Part shown: positions 1-58,547 of the stretch, piece after piece
How positions within the stretch are numbered: position 1 is the stretch's first letter
Layout: each line of letters begins with the position of its first letter
Origin: Dehalococcoidia bacterium
GTDB lineage: Bacteria > Chloroflexota > Dehalococcoidia > Plut-88900
DNA length: 64,000 nucleotides
Direction of reading: 5' to 3'
NCBI GenBank assembly: GCA_963668115.1
Contig: OY764147.1
Location: forward strand, 2,317,761-2,381,760
The notes under the pieces: generated by a model
Told to the model about the DNA's origin: nothing
The model's database searches: none
The model's input: only the letters and a program-made list of their open reading frames with translations
Program-made: the position numbers and the translations under genes

Positions 1-216
1 TCTCCTTGAAAGTGGGGTTTACACTCTCTGCCCCCCATGCTAGCATGGGGGGCAAAATTCACGAAACCCCCAACGCTACCACCGCGTCGGGGGTTCCGCC
101 GAGACCTTCACGGGAGGCCACGGAAGGCTCCAGAGCATCGGGAGTATACCCCCGATTCTGGGCCTAGCACAACCGAAAGGCAAACCCCCTTGTCGAGTCT
201 CGGCAAGGGGGTTAAT

Positions 217-480
217 TTGGATTCGGTAAGTTACCTAGTAGCGGGAGTGTTTCTCAGCCTGTTTGGACTGGTGGGGTTAGTGATAGGTTTGATTGGCTTA
301 GTAAGACTTCTCAAGCGGATGGGATGCGTTGATGAGTCGCCGCGTCACGGTAGGCGGATGGTGATTGCGCATAAACCTTTGTATGACAACGCGGGCATTG
401 ACTTACTAATTCTCTTATTTGGCTCAGGGATGTTGTACGTTGCCATAGAATTGCTAAAAGAGATAGCACAAGAACTATAG
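217..480 (+). CDS. small two-TM membrane protein (passenger ORF inside the IS). Probable TTG start at 217; the annotated ORF 37-480 has an implausible GC-rich N-terminal extension.
   Basis: Hydrophobic helices (LVAGVFLSLFGLVGLVIGLIGLV; IDLLILLFGSGMLYVAI). An AGGGGG Shine-Dalgarno-like motif lies upstream of the TTG. The ORF is AT-richer than its flanks. Confidence 0.3.
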   Translation: MDSVSYLVAGVFLSLFGLVGLVIGLIGLVRLLKRMGCVDESPRHGRRMVIAHKPLYDNAGIDLLILLFGSGMLYVAIELLKEIAQEL

Positions 481-590
481 CAATTCCGAGTGTGCCAATT
501 ATCGCCCAAATTACGTGCATGGATAAGGTAATCTCGCCCATGCCAACATCCTACATTAGCAAGCGGCCCGCAGGCAAATAAGGAGAGTCA

Positions 591-860
591 ATGGAGTACC
601 TGAAGACAAAACATCCGTGCCTAGTAGTGCTAGTCCTGTTCCTGATATCGGTTCCATTTCGATTCGCGGCCATGACGTCGGGTGTCCTTCCCCTTGCCAT
701 CATTGGCGATGGTATATTTATCATCGCAATCGTCTTGGGAATCGTCCTGATAGCCTTGAGGCTCAAGGCGCGGCGTCAAATCATCGGCTACTGTGAGACT
801 TGCGGCAAGCCATACATGAATGACAAAGAGCAAACCGAGCACGCCTTTAGCCATAGGTAG
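591..860 (+). CDS. small two-TM membrane protein with a C-terminal CxxC (CETCGKPY), passenger ORF inside the IS
   Basis: Strong RBS AAGGAGAGTCA precedes the ATG. Two hydrophobic helices. The stop lies 2 bp before the transposase start, suggesting an operon. Confidence 0.5.
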   Translation: MEYLKTKHPCLVVLVLFLISVPFRFAAMTSGVLPLAIIGDGIFIIAIVLGIVLIALRLKARRQIIGYCETCGKPYMNDKEQTEHAFSHR

Positions 861-862
861 CA

Positions 863-11990: not shown

Positions 11991-13073
11991 ATGTCGATAG
12001 AAGTGAAGATTTGGCGAATCGGCGAAGAATTTGCTCCAATATCACTCGGCGGGATGGATTATGAACACCGGCTCCAGGACGTCATAGCCTCCGATATCTC
12101 TATGATTGATCCCGGTCTTATAGTAATCGGCCGGGAAGTAGCTACCGCTTTTGGTGGCCGTATCGACATCCTGGCCGTTGATGCAGAAGGCAACTTGGTA
12201 GTAATTGAATTGAAACGTGCGCGTACACCCAGGGATATAGTGGCACAAGTGCTTGATTACGGTTCCTGCATGCTCCACATGGACTCCGAGGTGATTGCTA
12301 AGACTTTTATTGACTACCAGCAACGGTTTCTCAACGAGGCTAACCCCAAAGGAATCAATGACGCATTGCAAGAAAAATTCAACAGTGTTCCTGATGAACT
12401 CAATGCCTCCCACCGACTGCTCATCGTCGCCGAAGAACTCGATCCTTCTACTGAGCGCATAGTCCACTATCTACAAGACAAACACGAGGTTGACATCAAT
12501 GTCGTATTCTTCCGTGCGTTTCAGGATGAAGGACGTCTATATTTGACTCGTACCTGGCTAAATGACCCATTCGTCCTTTCTTCCGAACCTTCTTCCGACA
12601 AACGGCAGAAACGAGAGTGGAATGGTGAATTCTACGTTTCCTTCGGAGAAGGAGAAAGCCGAACTTGGAGCGATGCTAAGAAATACGGCTACGTGAGTGG
12701 AGGAGGAGGAGAGTGGTACGTGAGGACGCTGAGGATGCTTGAACCCGGCAACCGGATATGGGTCTCAGTCCCCGGTAAAGGATACGTAGGCGTTGGGAGA
12801 GTTATCACCCCGGCCATGCGCTTCGATGAGTTCCAAGTCCAACAAAACGGCTCTCTCGTTCCCATCACAACGGTCGGCCTTCAAGCGCCAAAGGCACTCC
12901 AGAAAGAGCAGGCTGAACATTTCGTAGGGGTTGAGTGGATCAAGACTGTCGACCTACAGGATGCAGTGAGAGAACGCGGTTTCTTCGGCAACCAGAACAC
13001 CGTGGCCCAGCCCCGAGACCCCAAGTGGAACTTCACGGTCGAACGCCTGCAATCCATCTGGGGAATAGATTAG
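11991..13073 (+). CDS. uncharacterised protein with an N-terminal PD-(D/E)xK (NucS/DUF91-like) nuclease motif and an about 230-aa C-terminal domain of unknown function
   Basis: GRIDILAVDAEGNLVVIELKRAR matches the RecB/NucS-type D...D/E-x-K core. The rest has no motif I recognise. Confidence 0.5.
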   Translation: MSIEVKIWRIGEEFAPISLGGMDYEHRLQDVIASDISMIDPGLIVIGREVATAFGGRIDILAVDAEGNLVVIELKRARTPRDIVAQVLDYGSCMLHMDSEVIAKTFIDYQQRFLNEANPKGINDALQEKFNSVPDELNASHRLLIVAEELDPSTERIVHYLQDKHEVDINVVFFRAFQDEGRLYLTRTWLNDPFVLSSEPSSDKRQKREWNGEFYVSFGEGESRTWSDAKKYGYVSGGGGEWYVRTLRMLEPGNRIWVSVPGKGYVGVGRVITPAMRFDEFQVQQNGSLVPITTVGLQAPKALQKEQAEHFVGVEWIKTVDLQDAVRERGFFGNQNTVAQPRDPKWNFTVERLQSIWGID

Positions 13074-15777: not shown

Positions 15778-17637
15778 TCACGGTTCAGACGTTAATTCCG
15801 GGTCCCCCCCATACACCCCCGAGAACCTACCCGAAATTTTCGCACCCGACCCCGTCCCCGCCTCCAATAGTTCCAGCGTCCCCGATGTAAAGGGAGTATA
15901 GCTGTCCGGTGCGACCGCCCCCGCCGGTATGGACCACGTACCCCCGGCTATCGGGTCCCGACCAATGACCAGCGTTGCACCGTCGGCCACCCGTGACACG
16001 GGCAGCACAACGGTCATTCCCGTTATGGAGCCGTCAGCCTCGACGCTGAAGCCGGCTATGGAAGCCAGCTCCCCGACCCCCGGCAGGATAGCCTGCTCAT
16101 CCGGGCTTGCGTGACCGGCGGTTATGGCCACCCCCTCCGTAGACTCTTCGTTTCCGTTCAGCAGAAGCCGCGTAACCGTCCCCTCTTCCCACGGATCGAC
16201 GTTGCGGTTGCTTCCCCAAACGGTCTCGAAGCTCACTTCCAGGGAACCCGACTCCCCCGCCACTTGCCCATAGTCGGGCTCAGGCCAGTCCGGGGGTTCC
16301 GGCGTGATGTCGGCCAGGATCTCCCCCCGACGCTTCAGTATGAACTTTCTCACCCGCTCCGTGTCCTTGGCCGCCGCCTCCCGTGCCCCGGGCTCGGCGT
16401 GCCTCTGGACTATGGCCGCCATCCGGTCGACACTCGCCATCAACTCATCCTCGTCCCAGATCGTCTCCAGCAGTTCCTTCATCCGGGCCGCGTATTTCGC
16501 CCGCCAGTCGGGGGTGTTGTAAAGGCGGTTGGGAATGGCCGTAAGTGCCAGCACCGAGGGGGGCGGGTCGCTAATGTTGTCGAACGGGTTGGGGTCCTCC
16601 TTCAGGTGGAAGGTGTCGTCCACCCCCCAGGGTATGAACACGAAGGGGCCGTCGGGCTCCCGGTAGAAGTGGTAGTTGTTGCGGTTGCCGGCATATCCGT
16701 CCCAGTGGCCCACCAAAACCTCCGTGGCCCAGAAGGACAGGAACCTGTCCAGGTCGACGACCTCGCCCAGCGCTTCCACCCCGCCCCCCGACCCATCCCG
16801 AAGGGCGGCCACCACCGCGTCGATATCCGACCAATCGTCTTCATCCTCGTTGGTCTTCTTCTCAATCGTGCCCCGGTAGTCGGGCGTGAAATCGCTCACC
16901 GTACCCTCGTACAGGTTCCCGTCTGCGCTGTCGAAATGGCGGGCCAGGAACGGCTTCTTGATCTCCTCCACGTGGACGTACAGCCCCAGTTCCTTGCCGT
17001 TCACCGTAACCGTGGCGAAATTGCACCGCGACGCAGGCAACCCCGCGGCCGCGAAGACCTGGTACGTCAAACAGGTGTTTATCATCGATGGGTCTTGGAC
17101 GCTGTTGTTCAACGTCATGCGCTCGATGACGCCTCCAAGGGTCTGGCCGTCCACGTACTTGTCGAACCGGAGCTTCAGCGCCGGCTTCGTGTCGCTCTGT
17201 GACCCGAGAAATCCCTTCTTCCGCACCCCGACCTCCGAGTGCGTCTCCCCATCCACCGTCACCGTCCCGGGGAACCACGTGTAGATGTCCGAAAAGGGAC
17301 GCGACAGCCCGAACTCCTCTATCTCCGCCATCACGTCCTCGAAGGTTCGCGTCTGGTGGCGCAGCGTGTCCCAGTCCTCGCGCGCAATCTCGATTTCTAT
17401 GTCCAGCACCCGACCCAGGTTGAAATATGTGGCGCTTGGGTCGACGACAGCGGTGTCAGGTGCAGATGTAGGAGATGTAGGGGTGGGTGTGCTGGTAGGA
17501 GGGGGCGCGGGTGTGGGAGTGGGCGTAGGAGTCGGGTCTGGGGAGGAACATCCCGCCAGGACCAGGATGGCAAGGGAGATGGCGACCAGAGCCAGGGCCG
17601 CCCGTCTACTGCTTCGCAAAGCTCGATTCATGTCCAA
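15778..17637 (-). CDS. CotH-like (kinase-fold) lipoprotein with an N-terminal Pro/Thr-rich linker
   Basis: Lipobox LVLAGCSS, then a PTPTPTPTPAPPPTSTPTPT stalk. A CotH-like core (NRNNYHFYREPDGPFVFIPWGVDDTF; GNLYEG) follows. Confidence 0.6.
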   Translation of the reverse strand: MDMNRALRSSRRAALALVAISLAILVLAGCSSPDPTPTPTPTPAPPPTSTPTPTSPTSAPDTAVVDPSATYFNLGRVLDIEIEIAREDWDTLRHQTRTFEDVMAEIEEFGLSRPFSDIYTWFPGTVTVDGETHSEVGVRKKGFLGSQSDTKPALKLRFDKYVDGQTLGGVIERMTLNNSVQDPSMINTCLTYQVFAAAGLPASRCNFATVTVNGKELGLYVHVEEIKKPFLARHFDSADGNLYEGTVSDFTPDYRGTIEKKTNEDEDDWSDIDAVVAALRDGSGGGVEALGEVVDLDRFLSFWATEVLVGHWDGYAGNRNNYHFYREPDGPFVFIPWGVDDTFHLKEDPNPFDNISDPPPSVLALTAIPNRLYNTPDWRAKYAARMKELLETIWDEDELMASVDRMAAIVQRHAEPGAREAAAKDTERVRKFILKRRGEILADITPEPPDWPEPDYGQVAGESGSLEVSFETVWGSNRNVDPWEEGTVTRLLLNGNEESTEGVAITAGHASPDEQAILPGVGELASIAGFSVEADGSITGMTVVLPVSRVADGATLVIGRDPIAGGTWSIPAGAVAPDSYTPFTSGTLELLEAGTGSGAKISGRFSGVYGGDPELTSEP

Positions 17638-17883
17638 AAAGCTTCCCCACCCCTTCCTATCCGATTGCCGGATACTTTAGCAACCGACAGCGCCGGTAAA
17701 CAAGCCAACAACAGCTTTTCACATGTCGCAACCGAGGTCACTCCCACCCTCCCCACCCACTCTTTGCCGTCATTCCCGTGCCCCGACACGGGAATCCAGA
17801 ATCAGACGCCTACTTTTTTAATTGGAGACGAGACCCACCCCCGCCCCTTGCCCTCAAGTCATAGGGTTGCCTATAGACTACTA

Positions 17884-19230
17884 TCAATAGTCCGCTAGGA
17901 ATACCTCCATCCTCTCGGCCAGGGCATCCAGTTTGAGGCCCAGCCACTTCTCATCAACCAACACTGCCTTTTCCAGCGCAACAGGAGAGGTGGGGAGGTC
18001 GGCTAGGACCTCTGGTGCTACGCGCTCAGGCCCCAATGGTAGCGCATGGAGATTCAAGGGTCCGTAGGGAATGTAGTTTGAAATCTCTACGTTAATCTCG
18101 GGGTGCCCCGTCCAAGCAATGAATAGTTCGGCCAGAGTCTTGTTCGGAGACCCTTTCGGGATATAGAACACATTGGCCTGGGTAACGTGTCCACATTCGT
18201 AGCAGTAGTGGATGTTGTTTCCGCCCGGTTCCCTCTGAATATTCCGTATCCGGTAGTTCCATGCCGTGCACATGTCAACTTCATCGTTCATCAGGCCTGA
18301 CGGGCAGTCGGTGCCCCCCGACCACCAGAACTGGATGTGGGGCTTGATCTGTTCCAGCTTTTCGAAAGATTGGTGTATCTGTTCAGGGGTGAGCTTGGCT
18401 GTAGATGTCCGACCATCGACAGTGTTCAGAATATCCGGCCTTCGGGCGAAGTGGGCAAAGAATATGTTTTCGTTCACCCTTCTACCCATCCACCTGGTGC
18501 CCGGAAAGTTCTCAACGTCCCAGAAAGCAGTCCAGTCGTTCGGCTTCTTGCCATCCCACAAAGTGTCGATCTTATCCTTTCTATAGGCGAGACCTGTGGA
18601 CCAGACCATCCCTCCACCACCACTCCACGGTGATATAGTCACTTCAGGATAACCGGTCAAGTATCCGTAGTGGATCGCCGGTGTTAGTTCTTCCAGATCC
18701 CCTGTAGGGCCGAGTTGCCATACAGCCCTCATGCCAGAGTCTCCGATGTCCCAGTTCATGTTTCCGGTTTCCAACCTCAAGCGGACCTTGGAGTCCTCAA
18801 CGGGGCTGTCTTCAATTATCTCAATCCCGAACTTCTCTTGGAAGGGCAGGAAGTAAGCCTGTCGCTGGGCTGCTTGATAAGAACCACCCCAGGAGACCAC
18901 AGTCAGACTCCGGCCCCTGTAGTTGGCCAGTTCCGCCTCAATATCCTGGAGGGTGGCGGGATTTTCCGCCGTCCATTGATGCCGAGGCTGAGGCTCGCTA
19001 GTGGGTGGTGGCGTCGGAGTGGGAATTGGCGTAACAGTCGGGGGTGGGATGGGCGTAGGTGTTTGAACAGGCGTCGAAATACTTATAGGCGGGGTGGCAG
19101 TCAGCAAGGCTTGCTCCACGGCAGTCTGGACGGCAGAGCCTGCGTCCTGGGTAGGGGGTGGAGCTTCCACAGTGCCGGAGCACGCGGCAAACGCGACCAG
19201 CAGGGCTATCGCCGCAGCCACAAATTTCAT
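17884..19230 (-). CDS. extracellular solute-binding lipoprotein (ABC transporter substrate-binding protein, family-1 like) with a Pro/Thr-rich stalk
   Basis: Signal sequence plus AFAACSG lipobox and a PTPIPPPTVTPIPTPTPPPT linker. The mature domain resembles PotD/iron-type periplasmic-binding proteins (LTVVSWGGSYQAAQ...). Confidence 0.6.
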   Translation of the reverse strand: MKFVAAAIALLVAFAACSGTVEAPPPTQDAGSAVQTAVEQALLTATPPISISTPVQTPTPIPPPTVTPIPTPTPPPTSEPQPRHQWTAENPATLQDIEAELANYRGRSLTVVSWGGSYQAAQRQAYFLPFQEKFGIEIIEDSPVEDSKVRLRLETGNMNWDIGDSGMRAVWQLGPTGDLEELTPAIHYGYLTGYPEVTISPWSGGGGMVWSTGLAYRKDKIDTLWDGKKPNDWTAFWDVENFPGTRWMGRRVNENIFFAHFARRPDILNTVDGRTSTAKLTPEQIHQSFEKLEQIKPHIQFWWSGGTDCPSGLMNDEVDMCTAWNYRIRNIQREPGGNNIHYCYECGHVTQANVFYIPKGSPNKTLAELFIAWTGHPEINVEISNYIPYGPLNLHALPLGPERVAPEVLADLPTSPVALEKAVLVDEKWLGLKLDALAERMEVFLADY

Positions 19231-19862
19231 CGGCCCACCCTACCCCCGCCCCCCACACCCGTCAACCAATCCCCAAAAACCCGCCCCCAAAAACCCTTGC
19301 TTTCTATTATATTCGTGCTAAACTGTCTGCGGTTCGAACTACTATTCATAATCAAAGGAGGTACACCAACACCCAGGGAAGCCCACCCGACCCCACACGG
19401 GTTCCGTGCCCCTTCCCTAACCCCCAGGCGATGGAAGGTCCATCGACTCTATGCGGCATCAGGCCTCTATATCGACGCCCTTGCCGATACGACGCCCCTC
19501 ACCCGGGCGTATACGCCTCGCCGACTTAACCCCCGCCGAGGAATTCCGCGAGTCTTTCACTCGTTATGCAGGGCCTTAGCGCCCTTATGCGGCTCCACCC
19601 GCCCACGGCGGCTTCGAGCCGATATGCCGTCCCGTTCAGCGGTCGAGCGCTGATGCGGAGGACGGATGTCCCCACGCAGAGACGCCCTCGACACCGGCAA
19701 GTCTCCCAAGGCATGCGTGAAGGGAAAGGCAGGACAACCGCCGATGCTGCCAGCGTCGGCGTAGGTGCCATCGAGATCCTGCATCCGAGTCCCGGACCTC
19801 CATCGCCTACCCAAACCCCACAACCAAACAACCTCTCCCCCACCCTCATCCCCTCCCCTCTC

Positions 19863-20086
19863 CGTAGGGGCGACCGGCTGGGCGCCCTCCCCGGTGTGGG
19901 GTGGGGGGTTCCTTCCCCGTTCCTTAAACAATCAAAGCCGTGCCTGAAATTGCAAAACAATCAAAAACCCACCCCTCGCGCCACGCGAATTCCCCAGAAA
20001 TCCCTTTCAGGCGTCATTCAATCAAAACAGCTACGAGTTCAATCAATCTTCAATCAACGTTCAATCAATGTTCAATCAAAACCCCA
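19863..20086. repeat. left arm of a long imperfect inverted repeat (core about 225 bp at about 90% identity with 25436-25642; weaker similarity extends to about 19700). Contains 5 tandem TTCAATCAA motifs.
   Basis: The reverse complement of 25436-25642 aligns base by base (…ggtgtggggtggggggttccttccccgttccttaaacaatcaaagccgtgcctgaaat…ttcaatcaa…). The shadow ORFs here are shared with those of the right arm. Confidence 0.85.
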
Positions 20087-20233
20087 CCCGAACAAGCGCA
20101 CCAAATTGACACCTCCACCTCCCCACTATAGAATAAAGGCCGCTTTTGGGAGGAATCACCATCAGTCTTGTGCCTTTACGCGCGGCGTCGCGCCCCGCCA
20201 ACGGCACGCCCCCATAGCTACAGGAGGTCGATA

Positions 20234-21379
20234 ATGGCAGATCTGTCCCGTATGGCCGCTATCGTCGGCGTCGACGAGTCCGACGAAATAGGCAAGGTAC
20301 CCAACAAGTCCCGCCTCCAGCTAGGCTCGGAGGCCGCATTCAACGCCCTCGACGACGCCGGCCTATCGCTATCGGACGTCGACGGGCTCTTCGTCGCAGG
20401 CCCGTCTCCCTATAACATGGCCGAATACCTGGGCATCACCCCCAGGTACACCGACGGCACCAACGTCGGCGGCTCTTCCTTCGTCATATACGTTGAGCAC
20501 GCCCTCGCCGCCATCAGCGCCGGCCTCATCGACGTTGCCCTCATCGTTCACGGCGAAGCGGGGCGAAGCTCTCGGGCCTACGCCGGCGACGACCCCAACA
20601 TGCCCATCGCCCAGTACGAGCACCCCTACGGCCTCGTCATCGAGCCCCACCCCTACGCCCTTGCCGCCACCCGCTACATGCACGAGTTCGGCCAGGAACG
20701 CACCCAGAACGCCTTGGGCGAGATCGCCGTTTCGACCCGAAAGTGGGCCCAGCTCAACCCCAAGTCCTTCATCAAGGACGACATGTCCATGGAGGACTAC
20801 CACGAGTCCCGGTGGATATCCTGGCCCTTCCACCTCTTCGACTGCTGCCTGGTTACCGACGGCGGCGGCGCCACGGTAATCACCTCCGCGGCGGTGGCCA
20901 AGAACACCAAGAAGAAGCCCGTCTGGGTCCTGGGTACCGCCGAGGGCCACGATCACGGCGAGGGAATCCTCCAGCAGGCCGACCTCTGCTCCACCATCGC
21001 CAGGGAGACCGGGCCCCGGGCCCTCGAAATGGCAGGGCTCAAGCACTCCGACATAGACCTCGCCATGATCTACGACTCCTTCACCTACACCGTCCTCATC
21101 ACCCTGGAGTCCCTCGGATTCTGCGGCCGCGGTGAAGGCCCCGATTTCGTCGCCAACCAGCGCACCGCCCCCGGCGGCGACTTCCCGATGAACACCAACG
21201 GTGGCGGCCTCTCCTACTGCCACACCGGCATGTACGGCATGTTCCTTCTCCTGGAAGCCACCCGACAGTTGAGAGGCGAGTGCGGAGACCGTCAGGTCGC
21301 CGGCGCCAAGACCTCCCTGGTCAACGGTACCGGAGGCACCCTCTCCTCCACAGGCACCATAGTCCTCGCCGCCGATTAG
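20234..21379 (+). CDS. thiolase-like protein (SCP-x/lipid-transfer-protein-type thiolase), paralogue 1. The true start is the ATG at 20234, preceded by CAGGAGG.
   Basis: N-terminus MADLSRMAAIVGVDESDEIGKV. Thiolase-like architecture, paired with a downstream DUF35 gene. Confidence 0.8.
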   Translation: MADLSRMAAIVGVDESDEIGKVPNKSRLQLGSEAAFNALDDAGLSLSDVDGLFVAGPSPYNMAEYLGITPRYTDGTNVGGSSFVIYVEHALAAISAGLIDVALIVHGEAGRSSRAYAGDDPNMPIAQYEHPYGLVIEPHPYALAATRYMHEFGQERTQNALGEIAVSTRKWAQLNPKSFIKDDMSMEDYHESRWISWPFHLFDCCLVTDGGGATVITSAAVAKNTKKKPVWVLGTAEGHDHGEGILQQADLCSTIARETGPRALEMAGLKHSDIDLAMIYDSFTYTVLITLESLGFCGRGEGPDFVANQRTAPGGDFPMNTNGGGLSYCHTGMYGMFLLLEATRQLRGECGDRQVAGAKTSLVNGTGGTLSSTGTIVLAAD

Positions 21380-21824: not shown

Positions 21825-21856
21825 CTCCCGGGCCGGTGCAACTGAGGAGGTCCCTA

Positions 21857-23002
21857 ATGGCTGACCTTTCGCGAAAAGCCGCCATCGTCGGCGTCGACGA
21901 GTCTAACGAGATAGGCAAGGTACCCAACAAGTCCCGCCTCCAGTTGGGCTCGGAGGCCGCTTTCAACGCCCTCGATGATGCCGGCCTCTCCCTCTCTGAC
22001 GTCGACGGGCTATTCGTCGCAGGCCCTTCCCCCTATAACATGGCCGAATATCTGGGCATCACCCCTAGGTACACCGACGGCACCAACGTCGGCGGCTCTT
22101 CCTTCGTCATCTACGTGGAGCACGCCCTGGCAGCCATCAGCGCCGGCCTCATCGACGTGGCCCTGATAGTCCACGGCGAGGCCGGTCGCAGCTCTCGGGC
22201 CTACGCAGGGGACGACCCCAACATGCCCGGCGCCCAGTACGAGGACCCCTACGGCCTCGTCATCGCTCCCCACGGTTACGCCTTGGCTTGCAGCCGTTAC
22301 ATGCACGAGTTCGGCGAAGAGCGTACCCGTGACGCCCTCGCCGAAATAGCCGTCGCCACCCGCAAGTGGGCCCAACTCAACCCCAAGGCCTTCATGCAGG
22401 ATGACATGACCATCCAGGACTACCACGAGTCCCGGTGGATATCCTGGCCCTTCCACCTCTTCGACTGCTGTCTCGTCACCGACGGCGGCGGCGCCACCGT
22501 CGTCACCTCAGCCGCCGTGGCCAAGAACACCAGGAAGAAGCCGGTCTGGATTCTAGGCTCCGCCGAAGGCCACGACCACGGAGACGGCATCCTCCAGCAG
22601 GCGGACCTCTGCTCCACCATCGCCCGGGAGACCGGGCCCCGAGCCTTGGGCATGGCCGGCCTCACCCACGACGACATCGACCTCGCCATGATCTACGACT
22701 CCTTCACCTACACCGTCCTCATCACCCTGGAATCCCTCGGCTTCTGTGGCCGCGGCGAGGGGCCGGAGTTCGTGGCCAACCAGCGCACCGCCCCCGGCGG
22801 CGACTTCCCGATGAACACCAACGGCGGAGGTCTCTCCTACTGCCACACCGGCATGTACGGCATGTTCCTCCTCCTCGAAGCCGCCCGGCAGCTTAGAGGC
22901 GAGGGTGGAGACCGCCAGGTGAAGGACGCCAAGACCTGCCTGGTCAACGGCACCGGCGGCACCCTGTCCTCCACCGGCACCCTCGTCCTGGCCTCGGACT
23001 AG
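21857..23002 (+). CDS. thiolase-like protein, paralogue 2. Start is the ATG at 21857, preceded by GAGGAGG; the annotated ORF 21656-23002 carries a spurious N-terminal extension.
   Basis: Its first 130 aa or more are nearly identical to paralogue 1 (MADLSRKAAIVGVDESNEIGKVPNKSRLQLGSEAAFNALDDAGLSLSDVDGLFVAGPSPYNMAEYLGITPRYTDGTNVGGSSFVIYVEHALAAISAGLIDVALIVHGEAGRSSRAYAGDDPNMP). Confidence 0.8.
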   Translation: MADLSRKAAIVGVDESNEIGKVPNKSRLQLGSEAAFNALDDAGLSLSDVDGLFVAGPSPYNMAEYLGITPRYTDGTNVGGSSFVIYVEHALAAISAGLIDVALIVHGEAGRSSRAYAGDDPNMPGAQYEDPYGLVIAPHGYALACSRYMHEFGEERTRDALAEIAVATRKWAQLNPKAFMQDDMTIQDYHESRWISWPFHLFDCCLVTDGGGATVVTSAAVAKNTRKKPVWILGSAEGHDHGDGILQQADLCSTIARETGPRALGMAGLTHDDIDLAMIYDSFTYTVLITLESLGFCGRGEGPEFVANQRTAPGGDFPMNTNGGGLSYCHTGMYGMFLLLEAARQLRGEGGDRQVKDAKTCLVNGTGGTLSSTGTLVLASD

Positions 23003-24296: not shown

Positions 24297-25337
24297 CTAG
24301 CCGCCGATGTGGTACATCTCCACCTTCCTGGCCCGGCTCCCGGCTAACGACGCCCGCTCCTCCGAATAGCGGTCGGCCCTGCGGGCCCAGATACCCTTGA
24401 TAATGTCGGTGAGGTCATCGTCGGTGGCGCCGGCGCGGAGGGGGCCCCGGAGGTCCTGGCCTTTGGAGGCGAAGAGGCAGGTGTAGACCTTCCCCTCCGC
24501 CGAGATGCGGGCACGAGTGCAGTCACCGCAGAAGGGGTTGCTCACCGAGGATATGACACCGATCTCGCCTTCGCCGTCGGCGTAGCGGTAGCGGTCTGCG
24601 ACTTCGCCGCGGTAGCTCTTGTCGACGGGCTCGAGGGGCATCTCCCGGCCAATGAGGTCGATCACCTGCTGCGAGGTGACCACCTGGTCGGACTCCCACT
24701 GATTCAGGTTGCCTACGTCCATGAACTCGATGAAGCGGAGGATGTGACCCATCTCCTTGACCCGACGGGTGAGGTCGACGATGGTGTGCTCGTTGACGCC
24801 CTTCTGGACGACTACGTTGATCTTGATGGGCGTCAGGCCGGCTTCCTCGGCGGCGCGGATGCCTTCCAGCACCCGTCCCGTCCCGAAACCCCGACCGTTC
24901 ATGTGCCCGAATACCTGGTCGTCCAGGGTATGGAGGCTTACCGTGACCCGCTTCAGGCCGGCATCCCGGAGGGTTTGCGCCTTCCTGGCTAGCAGGTAGC
25001 CGTTGGTGGTCAGGGCCAAGTCCTCCAGCCCTTCGATGGAGGCAAGCTGGCCGACCAGGACTTCCAACTGGTCGCGGAGGAGGGGTTCGCCGCCGGTGAG
25101 GCGTATCTTGCGCACGCCGAGGCCGACGAAGAGCCGGGCAACGCGGCTTATCTCCTCGAAGGTGAGGATGTCGTCTTTGGGCAGGAAGCGGTAGCGCTCG
25201 CCGAATATCTCCGCGGGCATGCAGAAGGTGCATCGGAAGTTGCACCTGTCGGTGACGGATATGCGCAGGTCCCTGAGGGGCCTCCCGAAGAGGTCGAGAA
25301 TGGTGTCGGGCCGGTTTGTGGAAGCGTTGGTACTCAT
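24297..25337 (-). CDS. moaA: GTP 3',8-cyclase MoaA (radical SAM molybdenum cofactor biosynthesis)
   Basis: Radical-SAM motif CNFRCTFCMP. C-terminal MoaA cysteines (CGDCTRARISAEGKVYTCLF). Full length. Confidence 0.9.
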   Translation of the reverse strand: MSTNASTNRPDTILDLFGRPLRDLRISVTDRCNFRCTFCMPAEIFGERYRFLPKDDILTFEEISRVARLFVGLGVRKIRLTGGEPLLRDQLEVLVGQLASIEGLEDLALTTNGYLLARKAQTLRDAGLKRVTVSLHTLDDQVFGHMNGRGFGTGRVLEGIRAAEEAGLTPIKINVVVQKGVNEHTIVDLTRRVKEMGHILRFIEFMDVGNLNQWESDQVVTSQQVIDLIGREMPLEPVDKSYRGEVADRYRYADGEGEIGVISSVSNPFCGDCTRARISAEGKVYTCLFASKGQDLRGPLRAGATDDDLTDIIKGIWARRADRYSEERASLAGSRARKVEMYHIGG

Positions 25338-25435
25338 GCGCCGCAGATGGATAGGCCACCCCTCCCGACTTCCATTCTACCCGCGACCCTCGGGGGTGTA
25401 CAAACGAGGGCACCGGTAGGGCCGGTTAGAGGTGC

Positions 25436-25642
25436 AGGGGGTTTTGATTGAACATTGATTGAACTCGTAGCTGTTTTGATTGAACGACGCCTGAAAGGGA
25501 TTTCCGGGGAATTCGCGTGGTGCAGGGGTGTGGGTTTTTGATTGTTTTGCGATTTCAGGCACGGCTTTGATTGTTTAAGGAACGGGGAAGGAACCCCCCA
25601 CCCCACACCGGGGAGGGCGCCCACGAGGGACGCCCCTACGGG
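25436..25642. repeat. right arm of the long inverted repeat (partner of 19863-20086); contains 3 TTCAATCAA motifs (reverse complement). Weaker similarity extends to about 25830.
   Basis: Direct base-by-base match to the reverse complement of the left arm. Confidence 0.85.
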
Positions 25643-26338
25643 GGAGGAAGAGAGAGGGGCCGGGTTGTTGGGTTGGGGGGTTTGGGTTTGCATTTTGTCT
25701 GTCGGGTTTTGGGTTGGCGATGGAAGACGCTTCCGGGACGCTGCCCCGTTCCTGTGCTTCGGGTTATTCGACGCCCCGGGGCAGGGGCGCCGGCCCGCTT
25801 TTGCCGCTGTGCGGCCTCTGGCCCTAAATACGCTGGACTTGGGCAAGGACCGTAAGGGCCAGCAGGTCCGAGCCATACTCCCTGGGGGGTTGGCTGCACC
25901 GCAGAAGGGCGGTATGGAGGCTCTTCCAGCGTCCGATGCAGAGCCTCTCGCAGGCGTAAAGGTTTCCAAGTTTGCCGGTGCGACCCGGGAGTGCGGGGGA
26001 CCACCGGCACCCGGCCTGATTGAGCGGTCGGGTTACCGAGAAGTCCTCGGCGCCGGGTCTATCCGACCGCACTTCCGCTGCAAAGAGCGGCTTCCTCCCG
26101 AGGGAGGCTTCCCCTGAAAGAGGCCGAGAGGGCGTCTTAGAGGGGCTTCACAATGGAACGTAGCGTCCAGGGCGTCTATCCATCGCCTGGGGGTCAGGGA
26201 AGGGGCACGGGACCCGTGTGGGGTCGGGTGGGCTTCCCTGGGTTTTTGGTGTTCCTCCTTAGGTCAGTGAGAATATCTGGTCGACCGTAGGGTATGATAA
26301 CGCCTTTGCTCAGATGTGTCAAGCAAATGTACGGGTTG

Positions 26339-26387
26339 GGAAGGAATTCCCCCGATTCCTCGCGGGGCATAGGGATGACATGGGGGT
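26339..26387. repeat. partial copy of the hairpin-repeat family (shares gattcctcgcggggcat with the copy at 28330-28346)
   Basis: Sequence identity to part of the 28258-28356 element. Confidence 0.5.
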
Positions 26388-26440
26388 TGGGGGTGGGGCT
26401 AGGGAAGGGGGTGTAGTGCTAGGATGCAGGTGATTATTCA

Positions 26441-26510
26441 GGAGGGATGGATTACCACCTCCGTGGGAATGATCCGCCATAGGCGGACAGGCTCCCCTCG
26501 GGGGTGGGGA
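26441..26510. repeat. hairpin-repeat family copy: GGAGGGATGGATTaCCAC-CTCC-GTGGGAAT palindrome, plus CCGCCataGGCGG and CCCCtcGGGG hairpins
   Basis: Three consecutive short palindromes. The same unit recurs at 26564-26724 and 28258-28356. Confidence 0.6.
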
Positions 26511-26563
26511 GGGGGGACGGGGTTGGAGTGACGGAAGATGGGAAGGGTGGGTTGCGGGGTTGT

Positions 26564-26724
26564 GGGTGAGTGTTTCGGAGGGATGGATTCCCACCTCCGT
26601 GGGAATGACGGATTAAAGGGGCGGGAATGATCCGCCATAGGCGGACAGGCTACCCTCGAGGGTGGGGGCCGCCCTGCCCCGCCCCGCGGGATGGATTCCC
26701 GACTACTCGGGAATGACGGAGGGG
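26564..26724. repeat. hairpin-repeat family, compound copy (two GGATGGATTCC-N-GGAATGAC units, with stems CCCAC/GTGGG and CCCGA/TCGGG)
   Basis: The GGGTGAGTGTTTCGGAGGGATGGATTCCCACCTCCGTGGGAATGACGGA core matches 28258-28304 except for compensatory stem changes. Confidence 0.6.
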
Positions 26725-26820
26725 AGGGGATTTTTGGTTGTATGGTGCGTTTAGAATGTACGGGAGGGGGTGATATGGAAATCAGGGGGAGGGAGAGAAG
26801 TGAAGACGGTTATCAGAGAA

Positions 26821-28233
26821 ATGGGGTGGTTGGCCTTGGTGGTGGGGTTGCTGATTGGGGTTGCGGCCTGCGCCTCTGACTTGGAAACACTCGTCTCCGA
26901 TGTCACGCCTAGCCCTTCTACTAGGGATTCGGAGACCGTCACAGCCCACATCACACCCACAATCCATGCCCTGCCGCAGCCTCCATTCTACGGTGCCGGC
27001 ACCCCATCATTGGATGAGCGCATATACGAATCGGATATCGTAGTCAGAGTTTCCTTATCATCCGTCACCGATGATCTATTGAAATTTAAGGCCATTGAAT
27101 ACCTAAAGGGCTCTGGAGCATCCGAGATCAGCGTCCATGCCTCCACCACTGGACGAAATACCTCCTGGGACGGACGGGAAGCGATACTCTTCCTCACCCT
27201 ACCGAAGAGTCAAGGGACAACAGGTTCCTCAGACAGTTCCTCATCACAGTTCATATTCACAGAATCCCAAGCCGTCAAGCACTATAGTGGTAACCTGTCC
27301 GATGGTTATACCATAGATACCCGGAACCCTGCGTGGCTACCTGCGGAATCTGCCTCTGGTACAACAGGGACTAGCGGTGGTAGTCAGACATTTATTACGG
27401 ATACCCAATCTCCCACCGGTGCTCTGTCTCCAGTGATTTCTCTGACGGATCTTCGTTCCAAGATAGCGTGGCAGGAAGTGAAAGAAGGTGTAGCAGGATA
27501 CGAGGATTGCATCTTGGCGCGCCTAGATCACGAGCAATGGTTCCGAAACTGGGAGACCCATTATGGGCGCGCATGGCCTCTTCATCAATTCAATGCGCGA
27601 GTGAATTCAGGAACGGGCAAGGGAGCAGTTATTAAGGCTTCCGGCAATTACAACTTGAATAAGTACTGGAAAGAGTGGTTAACCGGTATGGATGCAGAAC
27701 TCTTCAGCACTCAGGTCGTCGATAACGATGAGAAGCCCGGCAACGGCTTCAGCAGCAATATTACAACCGCCCGTCCTCTGATTGGCGGAACATACAATTA
27801 TATGTTCCACAGACAATGGCCCGAATACATGCCATGCAACTTTGTCTCTCCTCGTCATCGTCTAGCGTTAATAGTCACCGTCACTGCTCCGACGGGGACT
27901 GTTCACGAAGCCTTCTTCGATCCTGCCTCCACCTCCCTAGGGGTGGGTTTCCGGGGAAGTCAAGGCACACTCTCTCCCGCCTCCTTCACTCACGGGGACG
28001 TCTCATCCTCCATCGTCGGACTCGGGTGGGAGAATGGCAAGGTCATGCTTGCCCTTTCGCCCTACGTGTCCCTTGCGGGCAAGACCTTGGACTTCATCGA
28101 ACTGGATGGGACGGTGGGCCTTAGCCTGAGGTTCGACGATGGTGTGTCGGATGGGGAGTCGGGGACGGTTGTGTGGAAGGTGGATGAGCGGCCGTGGGAG
28201 TCGGGGGATGAGTTGATGATTCGGATTAGGTAG
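26821..28233 (+). CDS. hypothetical lipoprotein. Probable start at M18 of ORF 26770-28233; the gene is AT-richer than its surroundings.
   Basis: Signal peptide with LIGVAAC lipobox. The composition is Ser/Thr/Gly-rich and protein-like. I recognise no functional motif. Confidence 0.5.
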   Translation: MGWLALVVGLLIGVAACASDLETLVSDVTPSPSTRDSETVTAHITPTIHALPQPPFYGAGTPSLDERIYESDIVVRVSLSSVTDDLLKFKAIEYLKGSGASEISVHASTTGRNTSWDGREAILFLTLPKSQGTTGSSDSSSSQFIFTESQAVKHYSGNLSDGYTIDTRNPAWLPAESASGTTGTSGGSQTFITDTQSPTGALSPVISLTDLRSKIAWQEVKEGVAGYEDCILARLDHEQWFRNWETHYGRAWPLHQFNARVNSGTGKGAVIKASGNYNLNKYWKEWLTGMDAELFSTQVVDNDEKPGNGFSSNITTARPLIGGTYNYMFHRQWPEYMPCNFVSPRHRLALIVTVTAPTGTVHEAFFDPASTSLGVGFRGSQGTLSPASFTHGDVSSSIVGLGWENGKVMLALSPYVSLAGKTLDFIELDGTVGLSLRFDDGVSDGESGTVVWKVDERPWESGDELMIRIR

Positions 28234-28257
28234 GGGGAGAGGTGAGTTGTGGGGATG

Positions 28258-28356
28258 GGGGTGAGTGTTTCGGAAGGATGGATTCCTGCCTCCGCAGGAA
28301 TGACGGAGTGGTCGGGGGTGGGGCGCTGGAGATTCCTCGCGGGGCATCGGAACGGG
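28258..28356. repeat. hairpin-repeat family copy immediately downstream of the lipoprotein gene (stem variant CCTGC/GCAGG)
   Basis: GGTGAGTGTTTCGGAAGGATGGATTCCTGCCTCCGCAGGAATGACGGAG. Both stem arms changed together relative to the 26580 copy. Confidence 0.6.
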
Positions 28357-28520
28357 AAGAGAGGGGCGTCGGGAAGGGGAGGAAGGAGTGGAGGGATGTC
28401 ATGCTTGCATGTGAGCGAAGTCTGTGGGGCTGTGTGTCAATGGGAGGAAGTGAAGCAGGGCCGTTCGGAAGGCATTTGACAGGGTCAAGCCGGTAAAATT
28501 ATATTGGGCATACATCTCTC

Positions 28521-40766: not shown

Positions 40767-40952
40767 TCCCGTTACACCTCAGACAGACAGGTATCGCCGG
40801 GACTTCCGGCTCAACACCCAATTGACGTACTGACAATCCACAACAACCTGATGAGTACTCGGTAGCGGCTCGAGGAACATCGGGCCGCTTGTTTGTCTAA
40901 GGAGCACATTAACAACCGAATAGAGAAGAACGTTCTGTCCGGGTCTTAATGT

Positions 40953-44090
<3,138 letters not shown>

Positions 44091-44138
44091 TGCATTAAGA
44101 CACGCACAGAACGTTCAACTTCTCTATTCGGCACATGG

Positions 44139-44301: not shown

Positions 44302-44376
44302 CGCGGGGTGGAGCAGTGGCAGCTCGTCGGGCTCATAACCCGAAGGTCGTTGGTTCGAATCCAACCCCCGCTACCA
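44302..44376 (+). tRNA. initiator tRNA-Met (CAU anticodon)
   Basis: CGCGGGGTGGAGCAG…TCGGGCTCATAACCCGAAGG…GGTTCGAATCCAACCCCCGCTACCA. Matches the E. coli tRNA-fMet layout, including the three G:C pairs in the anticodon stem and an encoded CCA. Confidence 0.85.
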
Positions 44377-45557: not shown

Positions 45558-46838
45558 CTAATCCGTTAGCCAGAGGAAGCGGCGATCCTCCGCACCGTAT
45601 CCGGGCTGGTGTATCAGGAGTAGACCCCGTTCATCCTCTGGTATCTCGAAGCAAACGCTGCCCTCTACCCGGCCTCCAGGGAAGATTTCACGATTGAGCT
45701 CGTCCGGAATGAGACCGCAATCCTCACTAAATGAGGTGTATACCACCCTATTATTTCCAATGAGTTCGAAGTCATAGGCAGAGGATTCGACAGATTGCAA
45801 GGCATCCGAAGGGTTTGTAATTTCTAGCCGAATCATGAAGAAGCGGTTGCCCTCTCCAGGAGGATCGTTGTACCGATTTTCTGCATACACAAGCGACCAT
45901 GCATCCGCTATTGTGCTGACAACACGAATCTGCGTACCATCAGACCCCGTCATGACCTCGCCTTGCGCATATGCGTCGTCCAATGTACCTCCTGGCGGAG
46001 GAACCGGGTCACCAACACTATAGCCGATAAACGAGTCCCCATCACGGTCAATTTCGTAGTGATAGGTCAAGAATACGTCTCCGCCCTGACTCATCTTAGC
46101 CTCGGCCTTGCAACGCAAGAGTTTAGCTGTTCGCTCTACTTCCTCAATCTTGTCGGTATACAATTTCAGGATGCGAGGTGAAAATGAACTCTCATTGTCT
46201 TCTGACAATTCGATTATTTCATCGATGAACCACTCATCATTGCATGTTTGGGAGGAGGCTATCGTTAGCTTCACGGTGATGGTGAAGGTAGCGCGGACTG
46301 TGGGGTTTGAGTCGTCGTTGGCGGATATGGTAACCCTATAATCCTTGGCAGAGGCTTGTGAGCTTATTGTGCCGACCACTTGGCCTGACTGGTATGAGAG
46401 GCCAGGGGGTAGGCCGGAAAGTCTCACGGCTGGAGTGTCCTCTGCATCGGTAACCGTTATATCAAAGGCTGTGATCGTCTCGCCCTGATCGTAGCTCTTG
46501 TTGCCAGGGTTAGTGATTATCGGTCGAGAGTTTGGTATTGGCGTAGGCGTAGGTACAGGTGTTGGGCGGGGTGTAGCAGTGGGTTCGGGGGTAGCAGTAG
46601 GCACGGGTGTAGAGGTAGGGCGTGGCGTTGCAGTGGGATCAGGAGTCTCAGTCGGAGCTAGCGTTGGAGTGGGCGTCTGGGTCGGAGTAGGTACAGCAGC
46701 TTCCGTGGGCGCGGCAGTAGCCACCGAACCAGGCGTTTCAGACGCACACCCGAACACCATTACCAGAATGGCAATCAGCGTTGCCGAGATGCAAAAGAGC
46801 TTGATGGTGGAGCGGAACGGGATTCCGGCTGTGTGCAT
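45558..46838 (-). CDS. lipoprotein with a long Pro/Thr-rich repetitive linker and a C-terminal DUF4352-like beta domain
   Basis: Lipobox MVFGCAS. TPTPT/ATPEPTATPRPT repeats. C-terminal region with the RFFMIRLEITN…GSVCFEIPED pattern. Confidence 0.55.
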   Translation of the reverse strand: MHTAGIPFRSTIKLFCISATLIAILVMVFGCASETPGSVATAAPTEAAVPTPTQTPTPTLAPTETPDPTATPRPTSTPVPTATPEPTATPRPTPVPTPTPIPNSRPIITNPGNKSYDQGETITAFDITVTDAEDTPAVRLSGLPPGLSYQSGQVVGTISSQASAKDYRVTISANDDSNPTVRATFTITVKLTIASSQTCNDEWFIDEIIELSEDNESSFSPRILKLYTDKIEEVERTAKLLRCKAEAKMSQGGDVFLTYHYEIDRDGDSFIGYSVGDPVPPPGGTLDDAYAQGEVMTGSDGTQIRVVSTIADAWSLVYAENRYNDPPGEGNRFFMIRLEITNPSDALQSVESSAYDFELIGNNRVVYTSFSEDCGLIPDELNREIFPGGRVEGSVCFEIPEDERGLLLIHQPGYGAEDRRFLWLTD

Positions 46839-47821: not shown

Positions 47822-48475
47822 ATGACCACCCCCGACACCCGAGACGTCGAAGAACGCTACCAGCGCTTCGCCGCCACCTACGACAACGCCATGAGCTGGC
47901 TGGACGGCGTCCGGGACGCCTCCTTCGAACACCTCGCCCTTAAGCCTGGGGAATCGGTGCTCGACCTCGGGTGCGGCACCGGCATCAGCTTCGAACGGCT
48001 TCACCGGGACGTGGGCCCGGAGGGTCGCATCATCGGCTTGGAGCTAAGCTCCGAGATGCTGGAGTTAGCCCGGCAAAGGGTCGAGCTCAACGGCTGGGAC
48101 AACGTTACCCTCATCGAGGGTGATGCCAGCACCGTCGACATCCCCGGCCCCGTCGACGCCGTACTTGCCTTCTTCGTGCCCGAGATTCTCTATTTGCCCC
48201 CCGCCGTTCGCCGCGCCCTGGACTCGCTATCGCCCGGCGGCAGACTTGTGGCCTCCGGCGTGAAGCACGCCCGCGGGCCTTTGGGCCCCATCTTCAATAT
48301 CTATTTTCAAGCGAGATGGAGGACCTGGCGATGGGTGGGCATGAAGCGCGTCGTCAAGAGGATGTTCGGCAGGGGCCAGCCGTATGACACCCTGCAAGCC
48401 GCCGCCTCCAACCTGGAGCTATGGGACTATTTTTACGGCTGTGTCTACGTAGCACGGGCAACGAGGGACGGCTAG
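47822..48475 (+). CDS. class I SAM-dependent methyltransferase
   Basis: Motif I VLDLGCGTG, with the acidic and post-II motifs. Confidence 0.8.
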   Translation: MTTPDTRDVEERYQRFAATYDNAMSWLDGVRDASFEHLALKPGESVLDLGCGTGISFERLHRDVGPEGRIIGLELSSEMLELARQRVELNGWDNVTLIEGDASTVDIPGPVDAVLAFFVPEILYLPPAVRRALDSLSPGGRLVASGVKHARGPLGPIFNIYFQARWRTWRWVGMKRVVKRMFGRGQPYDTLQAAASNLELWDYFYGCVYVARATRDG

Positions 48476-48482
48476 CCTACCC

Positions 48483-49136
48483 ATGAACGCCTACGACCCC
48501 CAGGTCCAAAGGGACCGTTACCGACTCCACGCCGCCGACTACGACAAGGGCAAGCGCTTCTCCGACCGCATCCGACCCCACGCCATCCGACGTCTGGACC
48601 TGAAACCCGGAGAGACGGTCCTTGACCTGGGCTGCGGCACGGGCCTCAGCTTCGACATGCTCCAGCAGGGTGTCGGGCCTGAGGGCCGGATCATCGGCGT
48701 GGAGCTCAGCCCGGACATGCTGGACATCGCCCGTCAGAAAGTCGAGCGCAACGGCTGGGATAACGTCACCCTGATACAGGGCGACGCCCGGGAGGTGGAT
48801 ATCCCCGGTCCCCTGGATGCCGTCCTGGCCTACTTCGTGCCCGAAGTCCTAATCTCGCCGCCCGCCGTGACCCGGGTGATCGACGCTATGGCGCCCGGGG
48901 GCCGGCTGGTCAACGGGGGAGTCAAGCATGCCCAAGGTCTCCTCGGCCCGCTCTTCAACCTCTTTTTCCAGGTGCGGTTCAGGACGTGGCGATGGGTCGG
49001 GGTGAGGGGCTCGATGAGCAGGGTATTCGCCAAGGGCCAGCCCTATGATGAGCTGGAAAGGGCAGTCCCCGGACTGGAGCGAGAGGACTACATGCTCGGG
49101 TGTGCGTACATAGCTCGGGCGGAGAAGGTCGGGTAG
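48483..49136 (+). CDS. class I SAM-dependent methyltransferase (tandem paralogue, about 60% identical by eye)
   Basis: Same motifs. Nearly collinear with the upstream gene. Confidence 0.8.
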   Translation: MNAYDPQVQRDRYRLHAADYDKGKRFSDRIRPHAIRRLDLKPGETVLDLGCGTGLSFDMLQQGVGPEGRIIGVELSPDMLDIARQKVERNGWDNVTLIQGDAREVDIPGPLDAVLAYFVPEVLISPPAVTRVIDAMAPGGRLVNGGVKHAQGLLGPLFNLFFQVRFRTWRWVGVRGSMSRVFAKGQPYDELERAVPGLEREDYMLGCAYIARAEKVG

Positions 49137-58538: not shown

Positions 58539-58547
58539 CACTCTCCC

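Follow-up and report, generated by a model that had tools for sequence, protein, structure and literature searches.

The Neisseria Transformation Sequence (NTS; consensus CGTCATTCCCGCGMAVGCGGGAATCYRG) contains the long-known dRS3 repeat ATTCCC-N8-GGGAAT and is the site of SsnA, a 94-amino-acid single-domain GIY-YIG protein (cd10448) that binds the hairpin only as single-stranded DNA (ssDNA) and cleaves a few nucleotides upstream of it (Chenal et al., Nat Commun 2025, PMC11893778). No interaction was seen between SsnA and the site in RNA form, the C directly after the palindrome is critical for binding, the three nucleotides preceding the palindrome (GTC) are critical for cleavage, and altering the palindrome sequence while keeping its structure abolished the activity of the N. 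meningitidis enzyme (PMC11893778). In N. meningitidis the enzyme reduces the integration of site-bearing transforming DNA, and the same paper defines a broader "Ssn-related motif" (SRM; published search sequence HGTCWYN(0-2)YYVSBRHN(0-5)WNVSBRGN(0-2)RNCYNB) and reports that ssn genes typically have the motif at their flanks (PMC11893778). Here we analyse a 64,000-nt stretch of DNA from a Dehalococcoidia bacterium (contig OY764147.1; hereafter the window, to which all positions refer unless another locus is named), in which short palindromic repeats lie on both sides of a lipoprotein-like gene. Judged by their sequence, these repeats very probably belong to the NTS/SRM hairpin family.

The family itself has been known since 2025. 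What is new here is confined to its host lineage, Chloroflexota (Dehalococcoidia), and to local variants, namely stems outside the SRM pattern, a B-type form and direct arrays.

NTS-type hairpins around the lipoprotein gene

Four hairpin cores surround the lipoprotein gene, all on the plus strand, at 26449-26472 (copy 1), 26585-26608 (copy 2), 26693-26716 (copy 3) and 28280-28303 (copy 4). The initial annotation had placed repeat units near 26441, 26580, 26688 and 28271, and they were found within 1–3 nt of these positions. On the plus strand the unit (n=4) reads GGATGGATT(C/A)C, a 3-nt stem, a 4-nt loop, the complementary stem and GGAATGA(C/T); on the opposite strand it reads CGTCATTCC…GGAATCC. 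It is about 31 nt long (28–31 nt) and combines a constant outer stem, ATTCC/GGAAT, with a variable 3-bp inner stem and the 4-nt loop, framed by GGATGG to the left and GACGG to the right. The core pattern GGATTMC-N10-GGAATGA has four matches in the window, against 0.02 ± 0.14 expected from 100 dinucleotide shuffles of the window.

A looser scan revealed a fifth, minus-strand copy at 17770-17797, whose 9-bp stem closes a 6-nt loop. Its plus-strand sequence is CGTCATTCCCGTG-ccccga-CACGGGAATCCAG (17768-17799; full string CGTCATTCCCGTGCCCCGACACGGGAATCCAG), which is the NTS-forward reading, and it is the only canonical copy in the window. It sits between a gene for a solute-binding protein (17884-19230, minus) and a CotH gene (15778-17637, minus), ending 87 nt past the stop of the former in sense orientation. 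Together the five copies carry four distinct inner stems: CAC, CGA, TGC and, from the copy at 17770-17797, CGTG.

Intact copies are predicted to fold as ssDNA with energies of -7 to -9 kcal/mol (z -2.3 to -3.4). Copy 2 (inner stem CAC/GTG) forms its hairpin on the plus strand in the predicted DNA fold; the values are -7.5 kcal/mol (z -3.4) for copy 3 (GGATTCCCGACTACTCGGGAATGA; CGA/TCG), -7.7 kcal/mol (z -3.0) for copy 4 (TGC/GCA), whose core begins 47 nt past the lipoprotein stop codon, and -8.9 kcal/mol (z -3.3) for the fifth copy. Copy 1 (GGATTACCACCTCCGTGGGAATGA; CAC/GTG) folds weakly (z -0.75) and is decayed, since it has one outer-stem mismatch (ATTAC) and a GATC flank replacing GACG.

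Reverse-complemented, the window unit reads CCGTCATTCC-NNN-loop-NNN-GGAATCCATCC. The strand that reads as NTS, (C)CGTC-ATTCC-NNN-loop-NNN'-GGAAT-CCATCC, corresponds to the minus strand in the lipoprotein-gene copies and to the plus strand at 17768-17799. All five copies have the outer stem ATTCC/GGAAT, with one mismatch in copy 1, and the flanks critical for Ssn (GTC on the 5' side, C on the 3' side) are kept in four of the five (copies 2–5), copy 1 having ATC for GTC. Strict dRS3 spacing and sequence, ATTCCC-N8-GGGAAT, are found in just two copies, 2 and 3; in copy 4 a T-A pair, compensated, departs from the strict form, and the spacing in copy 5 is N12. The published SRM pattern is matched exactly by one copy of the five, that at 17768-17799.

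Further elements of the same array are less well preserved. Two decayed hairpins of a variant that we call B-type lie at 26354-26378 (GATTCCTCGCGGGGCATAGGGATGA) and 28331-28354 (GATTCCTCGCGGGGCATCGGAACG), both on the plus strand, and the flank element GATTCCTCGCGGGGCAT shared by the two sides of the gene (26354 and 28331) is itself a decayed copy of this variant. Its intact form in Dehalococcoidia loci, GATTCCTCGCGGGGCATCGGAATGAC, has the ATTCC/GGAAT stem around a 12-nt interior and was confined to Dehalococcoidia loci within the sample examined. In total the lipoprotein gene has five elements upstream and two downstream, all seven in one orientation.

The array is a mosaic. A 73-nt composite module at 26540-26612 (plus strand) joins a G-rich flank, the sequence GGGTGAGTGTTTCGGA (present twice, at 26564 and 28259) and hairpin copy 2, and is 85% identical to a second copy at 28235-28307 (plus strand) that carries hairpin copy 4; the Dehalococcoidia locus L040 has a similar module. 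A 45-nt module C (GGGAATGATCCGCCATAGGCGGACAGGCTCCCCTCGGGGGTGGGG), with two additional small palindromes inside, occupies 26465-26509 and recurs at 26623-26667 with 96% identity and the right half-site GGGAATGATCC at its start, both on the plus strand. The longer shared flanks described in the initial annotation are real, GGGTGAGTGTTTCGGA and GATTCCTCGCGGGGCAT being present twice each, and the 45-nt module is a further element in two copies. The whole segment 26402-26509 duplicates 26540-26667 in diverged form. Copies 1 and 2 are therefore not independent, being products of one local duplication with the common inner stem CAC/GTG, and copy 1 lost an outer pair after that duplication. The local array grew in part by duplicating modules of 70–150 nt. 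Tandem Repeats Finder did not detect it, because the modules are too diverged.

Two promoter-like sites, recognised by consensus match only, delimit the repeat tracts: TTGACA-17-TATCAT (11/12) at 26294-26322 on the minus strand marks the left edge and points toward the leader of the moaA operon, and TTGACA-18-TATATT (11/12) at 28476-28505 on the plus strand marks the right edge, upstream of comEA. G-runs of the G-quadruplex type concentrate near the hairpin arrays (26189-26559, 28354-28379 and 17743-17853). They occupy the strand that reads GGATTCC…GGAATGAC, and the array DNA there is 44–48% G.

Seen beside the NTS/SRM–SsnA system, the window repeats share the blocks CGTC-ATTCC…GGAAT-C, with oriented and non-palindromic flanks, an 8–9-bp stem with a variable loop, and many intergenic copies clustered around surface-protein genes. 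On the other hand, the host belongs to Chloroflexota, a phylum without mention in the main text of PMC11893778, the 3' flank is CCAT instead of CYRG, the arrays are direct and not inverted, four copies with CAC, CGA or TGC stems lie outside the pattern, there is a B-type variant, and no cognate ssn was seen in the 64-kb window. The Neisseria dRS3 repeats and Neisseria intergenic mosaic elements (NIMEs) are likewise close, having the exact core of copies 2 and 3, mosaics with longer modules (45 and 73 nt here) between or joined to the hairpins, and a variable surface-protein gene beside them; they differ in that the inter-hairpin modules of the window are unrelated and G-rich, copies 1, 4 and 5 miss the strict N8, and the phylum is another. 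The repetitive extragenic palindromes (REPs) and bacterial interspersed mosaic elements (BIMEs), with the REP doublets called REPINs and their REP-associated tyrosine transposases (RAYTs), offer short extragenic palindromes in mosaic clusters, compensatory stem variation and a single-strand-specific enzyme of HUH or GIY-YIG type as the proposed partner. They are unlike the window repeats in their inverted and not direct doublets, in their conserved flanks and in their partner, which here is a GIY-YIG family with no RAYT in the window.

Pairing, distribution and GIY-YIG neighbours

To follow the hairpin in other organisms we scanned species-representative genomes (one per species) for GGATGGATTCC-N(8-14)-GGAATGACGG and retrieved at least 115 blocks of about 8 kb each (L001-L115). 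Most come from Dehalococcoidia metagenome-assembled genomes (MAGs) and others from further phyla: among the matches listed, about 67 blocks are from Dehalococcoidia or other Chloroflexota MAGs, and the remainder include Nitrospirales, Binatia, Povalibacter, Neisseria, Burkholderiales, Sphingomonadales, Thermoanaerobaculia and Planctomycetota. The 67 Chloroflexota blocks among these matches hold 129 hairpins, 92 of which fit the SRM pattern and 64 of which are within one mismatch of the Neisseria NTS consensus. Among the blocks listed, the closest relatives of the window are Dehalococcoidia MAGs, L042 (89% identity over 570 nt), L040, L030 and L008. A search for copies beyond the locus had been proposed in the initial annotation, according to which confinement to this locus would instead suggest a local tandem duplication; the copy at 17770-17797 and the copies in at least 115 blocks from other genomes lie outside it, yet the array itself is partly a product of local duplication.

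Pairing of the stem is maintained across these copies. Within the window, copies 2 and 4 lie in homologous 73-nt modules, have an identical loop and differ at two stem pairs, both of which are compensated (C-G to T-A and A-T to G-C), so that their difference is a real covariation event. Over the window and the 115 or more blocks, at least three Watson-Crick inner pairs are kept in 203 of 218 copies, with more than nine stem types. Because the search pattern fixed the outer stem, only the three inner pairs are informative on pairing, and covariation was scored on these in 45 distinct sequences. Paired cells amount to 97%, compared with 90% after shuffling, and two-sided changes to 23 cells, compared with 3.9; pairing falls to 30–55% when the partner columns are slid.

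These results support a dispersed hairpin family under selection for pairing, which is REP/BIME-like in a broad sense. Stem compensation across many copies and genomes implies ongoing selection, or else copying that depends on the hairpin. The proposal that covariation reflects selection on the hairpin is borne out by double compensatory changes in excess of shuffled controls. Its companion statement, that the arms always stay complementary despite substitutions, holds for pairing in general, with the reservation that copies 1 and 2 stem from one duplication and that the outer pair of copy 1 is broken. The comparison with REP/BIME elements likewise stands for a dispersed family of paired hairpins and fails on identity, which is NTS/SRM and not a RAYT-type REP.

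Neighbouring hairpins (at most 400 bp apart) are direct in 42 of 50 Chloroflexota pairs and in 6 of 30 pairs from other phyla (L001-L115), counts to which a few genomes contribute many pairs. The gene families that recur beside hairpins in Chloroflexota loci are only abundant metabolic families, plus a methylase-Mrr gene in four loci.

Two comparisons between relatives bear on the mobility of the unit. Rickettsia palindromic elements (RPEs), of about 100–150 nt, can insert in frame into protein-coding genes. In the Dehalococcoidia MAG contig CBDBLV010000005.1 (L008, 1766-1800) a hairpin lies in frame within a tilS-like open reading frame (ORF) and adds 11 residues, PSFLRRQESIL, relative to the homologue in L126. 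A discrete block of about 33 nt comprising the unit can thus enter a gene and be accommodated within its protein, a capacity for in-frame insertion shared with RPEs, although RPEs are longer and unrelated in sequence and the window has no in-frame copy. In the second comparison the flanks are 89% identical, and between them L042 (3793-4118) has about 255 nt more than the corresponding window segment (19828-19898); the extra DNA contains a hairpin and a long GC-rich palindrome. This difference is a presence/absence polymorphism of hairpin-bearing intergenic DNA.

We looked for a partner enzyme in the window and in the 115 genome blocks with a regular expression, with phmmer and a YhbQ sequence, with a family consensus and with a hidden Markov model built from 120 real hits. 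The family consensus retrieved a very large GIY-YIG family (Pfam PF01541, about 95 amino acids), two members of which, in Nitrospirae and Poribacteria genomes (L116 and L117), are flanked by the hairpin. The association was then examined in 80 metagenomic loci encoding this family (412 kb in total). A hairpin, by the strict pattern, lies within 300 bp of the gene in 52 of the 80 loci and on both sides of it in 22, and 91 of the 124 hairpins in these loci adjoin a GIY-YIG gene. The identical hairpin flanks Ssn genes in these 52 loci, a further likeness to the NTS/SRM–SsnA system. Orientation mostly follows the gene: 35 of 42 upstream hairpins are NTS-forward and 37 of 49 downstream hairpins are in reverse. 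In L013 and L068 degenerate remnants of ssn genes are still bracketed by hairpins.

One metagenomic locus, L125, may bring the enzyme close to the lineage of the window. Its Ssn gene with flanking hairpins lies beside greA-lysS-serS, in synteny with a Dehalococcoidia MAG and 49–59% identical to it, and the hairpins use the TGC/GCA stem seen in window copy 4. This context suggests that an Ssn enzyme occurs in Chloroflexota, or in the lineage itself. Another candidate Ssn, in L201 (9284-12959), was set aside; it lies in a chemotaxis operon among three CheD-like fragments, and this Ssn-family gene resembles an insertion that split or duplicated cheD.

What the hairpins may do

By analogy with the characterised Ssn system, the unit would act at the DNA level. 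The NTS strand, when single-stranded in incoming transforming DNA or in replication or repair intermediates, would fold into an 8–9-bp hairpin; a small single-domain Ssn-family GIY-YIG nuclease (cd10448) would recognise it and cut a few nucleotides 5' of it; and cutting would fragment the ssDNA and lower recombination across the flanked gene. We give a probability of roughly 60% to this reading, that the hairpins are NTS/SRM units acting on DNA and recognised as ssDNA by an Ssn-type GIY-YIG nuclease, and regard the chances of a present function through Ssn in this organism as evenly balanced. We infer that this genome would encode a cognate Ssn, that the inner-stem variants described here may be substrates of it, and that flanking of the lipoprotein gene would have a consequence. 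The DNA-uptake genes comEA and comEC lie directly downstream of the region of the repeats and the lipoprotein gene, circumstantial evidence that makes ssDNA uptake plausible in this organism.

Several observations weigh against this DNA-level role. Four of the five window copies miss the SRM pattern, each at one inner-stem position, because of their inner-stem variants, and as palindrome changes abolish SsnA activity, such variants may escape cutting by the canonical enzyme. Decay has affected copy 1 and the two B-type copies. An influence of SsnA on transformation was demonstrated in Neisseria only (PMC11893778). Neither the 64-kb window nor the 67 Chloroflexota blocks of about 8 kb yielded an Ssn/GIY-YIG gene or a remnant of one, remnants being seen only in non-Chloroflexota loci, and no Chloroflexota-named Ssn was among the top 120 matches of either protein search (with the consensus and with a "high-GC-shifted" consensus), both of which matched thousands of GIY-YIG proteins. 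The absence of Ssn says little, since there are perhaps hundreds of hairpins for one gene per genome and less than one hit would be expected.

Several of these same observations feed the alternative that the hairpins are relics, related to NTS/SRM by descent, which spread at an earlier time and are now neutral intergenic passengers, kept by local duplication while slowly decaying, without a protein partner or any influence on the lipoprotein gene. This reading we consider unlikely, though it deserves some weight. The decayed state of copy 1 and of the B-type copies would be expected of relics, as would the duplication of modules in the array, the lack of an Ssn gene in the window and the 67 blocks, the existence of ssn pseudogenes with hairpins still at their flanks (L013, L068), and the turnover of hairpin-bearing intergenic DNA between relatives whose flanks are 89% identical. 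Relics would not, on the other hand, be expected to keep up compensatory stems across many copies and genomes, to retain the Ssn-critical flanks in four of five window copies, or to stay within one mismatch of the Neisseria consensus in half of the Chloroflexota copies (64 of 129 among the matches listed).

A role at the RNA level, in which the hairpins would stabilise 3' ends, terminate transcription despite lacking a U-tract or regulate the lipoprotein gene and its neighbours as RNA stems, is improbable. The sense orientation of copy 4, with its core 47 nt after the lipoprotein stop, and of the copy 87 nt after the solute-binding-protein stop would suit it, and so would the two lipoprotein paralogues of L105, each followed by a hairpin. 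The RNA-level terminator suggested in the initial annotation nevertheless finds no T-run: a terminator scan passes over the hairpins, their tails are G-rich, and Rfam 15 has no match at E<5 in 25950-28450, the only matches in the window at gathering score being 23S rRNA and tRNA. Orientation relative to genes is also unbiased, with 38 hairpins sense and 40 antisense 3' of genes in Chloroflexota and 24 and 26 elsewhere, numbers that rest on crude gene calls; the five elements upstream of the lipoprotein gene fall in the gap separating two divergent transcription units; and SsnA showed no interaction with the site as RNA (PMC11893778). Random gene orientation together with the missing terminator tail fits a DNA-level role better than an RNA-level one.

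Mobilisation by a transposase or recombinase, either as REP/BIME-type elements moved by a RAYT or as targets of an IS110/Piv-type recombinase, of the kind reported for dRS3 and Neisseria filamentous phages, is very improbable. It has in its favour the general look of short intergenic palindromes in mosaic arrays, the citation of dRS3 as a phage recombinase target (PMC11893778) and the discrete insertion of about 33 nt in the tilS-like gene of a relative. However, a Pfam scan of about 54 window ORFs returned no Y1 (RAYT) or IS110-type transposase, the only transposase of the window being DDE_Tnp_IS240 (IS240-type; 863-1948), 25 kb away; the elements are direct, as are 42 of 50 adjacent Chloroflexota pairs, unlike the inverted doublets of REPINs; and the gene family that co-localises with the hairpin is GIY-YIG.

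The flanked gene itself is relevant to the proposal that a mobilised cassette, or a miniature inverted-repeat transposable element (MITE), with the repeats as its ends brought in a foreign-looking lipoprotein gene. The gene runs from a GTG start at 26800 to 28233 on the plus strand, so that of the coordinates first given for it (26821-28233) the end stands and the start is moved by the database call. It encodes 477 amino acids with a signal peptide ending in the lipobox VAAC, and the database protein P0001 is 100% identical. With 53.7% GC and 58.8% GC at third codon positions (GC3), against a GC3 of 72–87% in most neighbouring genes measured, it is indeed lower in GC than its neighbours; three more window genes are equally atypical in GC3, namely those for the solute-binding protein, for a DUF4352 protein and for a protein whose nuclease domain is NucS C-terminal-like. 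Searches of Pfam, NCBIfam and PDB gave no relative of the lipoprotein, and its family comprises at least 396 homologues of about 500 amino acids, a few named from Chloroflexi MAGs, with several paralogues per genome and, in some, extra cadherin or fibronectin-III domains. Elsewhere, three of four homologue contexts (L118, L119 and L120) have no adjacent hairpin and only L105, with its two paralogues, resembles the window.

The placing of repeats on either side of a low-GC3 gene, and the occurrence of the closest homologue (62% identity) in a different neighbourhood beside a DDE transposase, are what a cassette would lead one to expect. The flanking repeats are, by contrast, direct, unequal in number (five against two) and of mixed types, terminal inverted repeats around the gene were not found, the neighbourhood of the repeats has no transposase, most homologues examined lack adjacent hairpins, and the same hairpins stand beside unrelated metabolic genes in many loci. 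The cassette reading is rejected, and the small MITE considered in the initial annotation falls with it, as no terminal inverted repeats bracket the gene. Two of the low-GC3 genes (54%) lie at 11991-13073 (360 amino acids, with the NucS C-terminal-like nuclease domain as the only domain) and 45558-46838 (DUF4352).

A further reading can be considered, in which the Dehalococcoidia hairpins would form an NTS/SRM branch of their own, served by a diverged Ssn or another ssDNA-binding enzyme, with arrays that bracket hypervariable surface-lipoprotein genes beside the DNA-uptake genes and insulate or steer the exchange of the former by natural transformation in host-associated communities. Inner stems outside the known pattern, the 12-nt interior of the B-type and tandem direct arrays in G-quadruplex-prone tracts may be signs of such a branch, a possibility that we hold to be speculative and rather doubtful.

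Further features of the window and meaning of the hairpins

Outside the hairpin arrays, two apparently non-coding segments of about 1 kb, 19230-20235 and 25338-26300, are inverted paralogues of each other and lie upstream of thiolase-like genes and of moaA. Their best-conserved parts are 19355-19435 with 26260-26179 (94%) and 19809-20057 with 25687-25444 (90%). They hold about five TTCAATCAA repeats (about 20010-20085) and a conserved stem-loop after an AAGGAGG motif, recur as conserved sequence in L042 and L030, and are without any match in Rfam, the conserved leader included. The ORFs 19566-20234 and 25334-25969 are probably spurious. Two adjacent Thiolase_C_1 genes, 20222-21379 and 21845-23002, are 87% identical in DNA and represent a recent tandem duplication; more tandem paralogues are found among methyltransferases (47822-49136) and as three MFS transporters (57333-61100).

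A 23S rRNA gene without adjacent 16S or 5S is followed by tRNA-Met (44302-44376) in the segment 40954-44376. The 23S gene is enclosed by a pair of inverted repeats (40916-40961 and 44083-44131), and a 40-nt direct repeat occurs at 44139 and 44243. At the left end of the window (1-1948) the DDE_Tnp_IS240 gene lies in a low-GC stretch that has a perfect 26-nt palindrome at 29-54. A nearby replication origin was considered from GC skew and dropped, as the skew flips sign again at 47 kb.

The hairpin sites of a site-specific ssDNA nuclease system are now placed in Chloroflexota. The near-identity of a 28–31-nt sequence in Neisseria, Nitrospirales, Binatia, Poribacteria and Dehalococcoidia suggests that the hairpin–enzyme pair has spread horizontally. 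For annotation, the family accounts for G-rich intergenic arrays that would pass for "junk" and for spurious ORFs called through them, and the published SRM search pattern under-counts variants such as the window copies. Should these uncultured bacteria possess an Ssn partner, the arrays beside comEA/comEC and a variable lipoprotein gene would offer a testable case of recombination control outside Neisseria.

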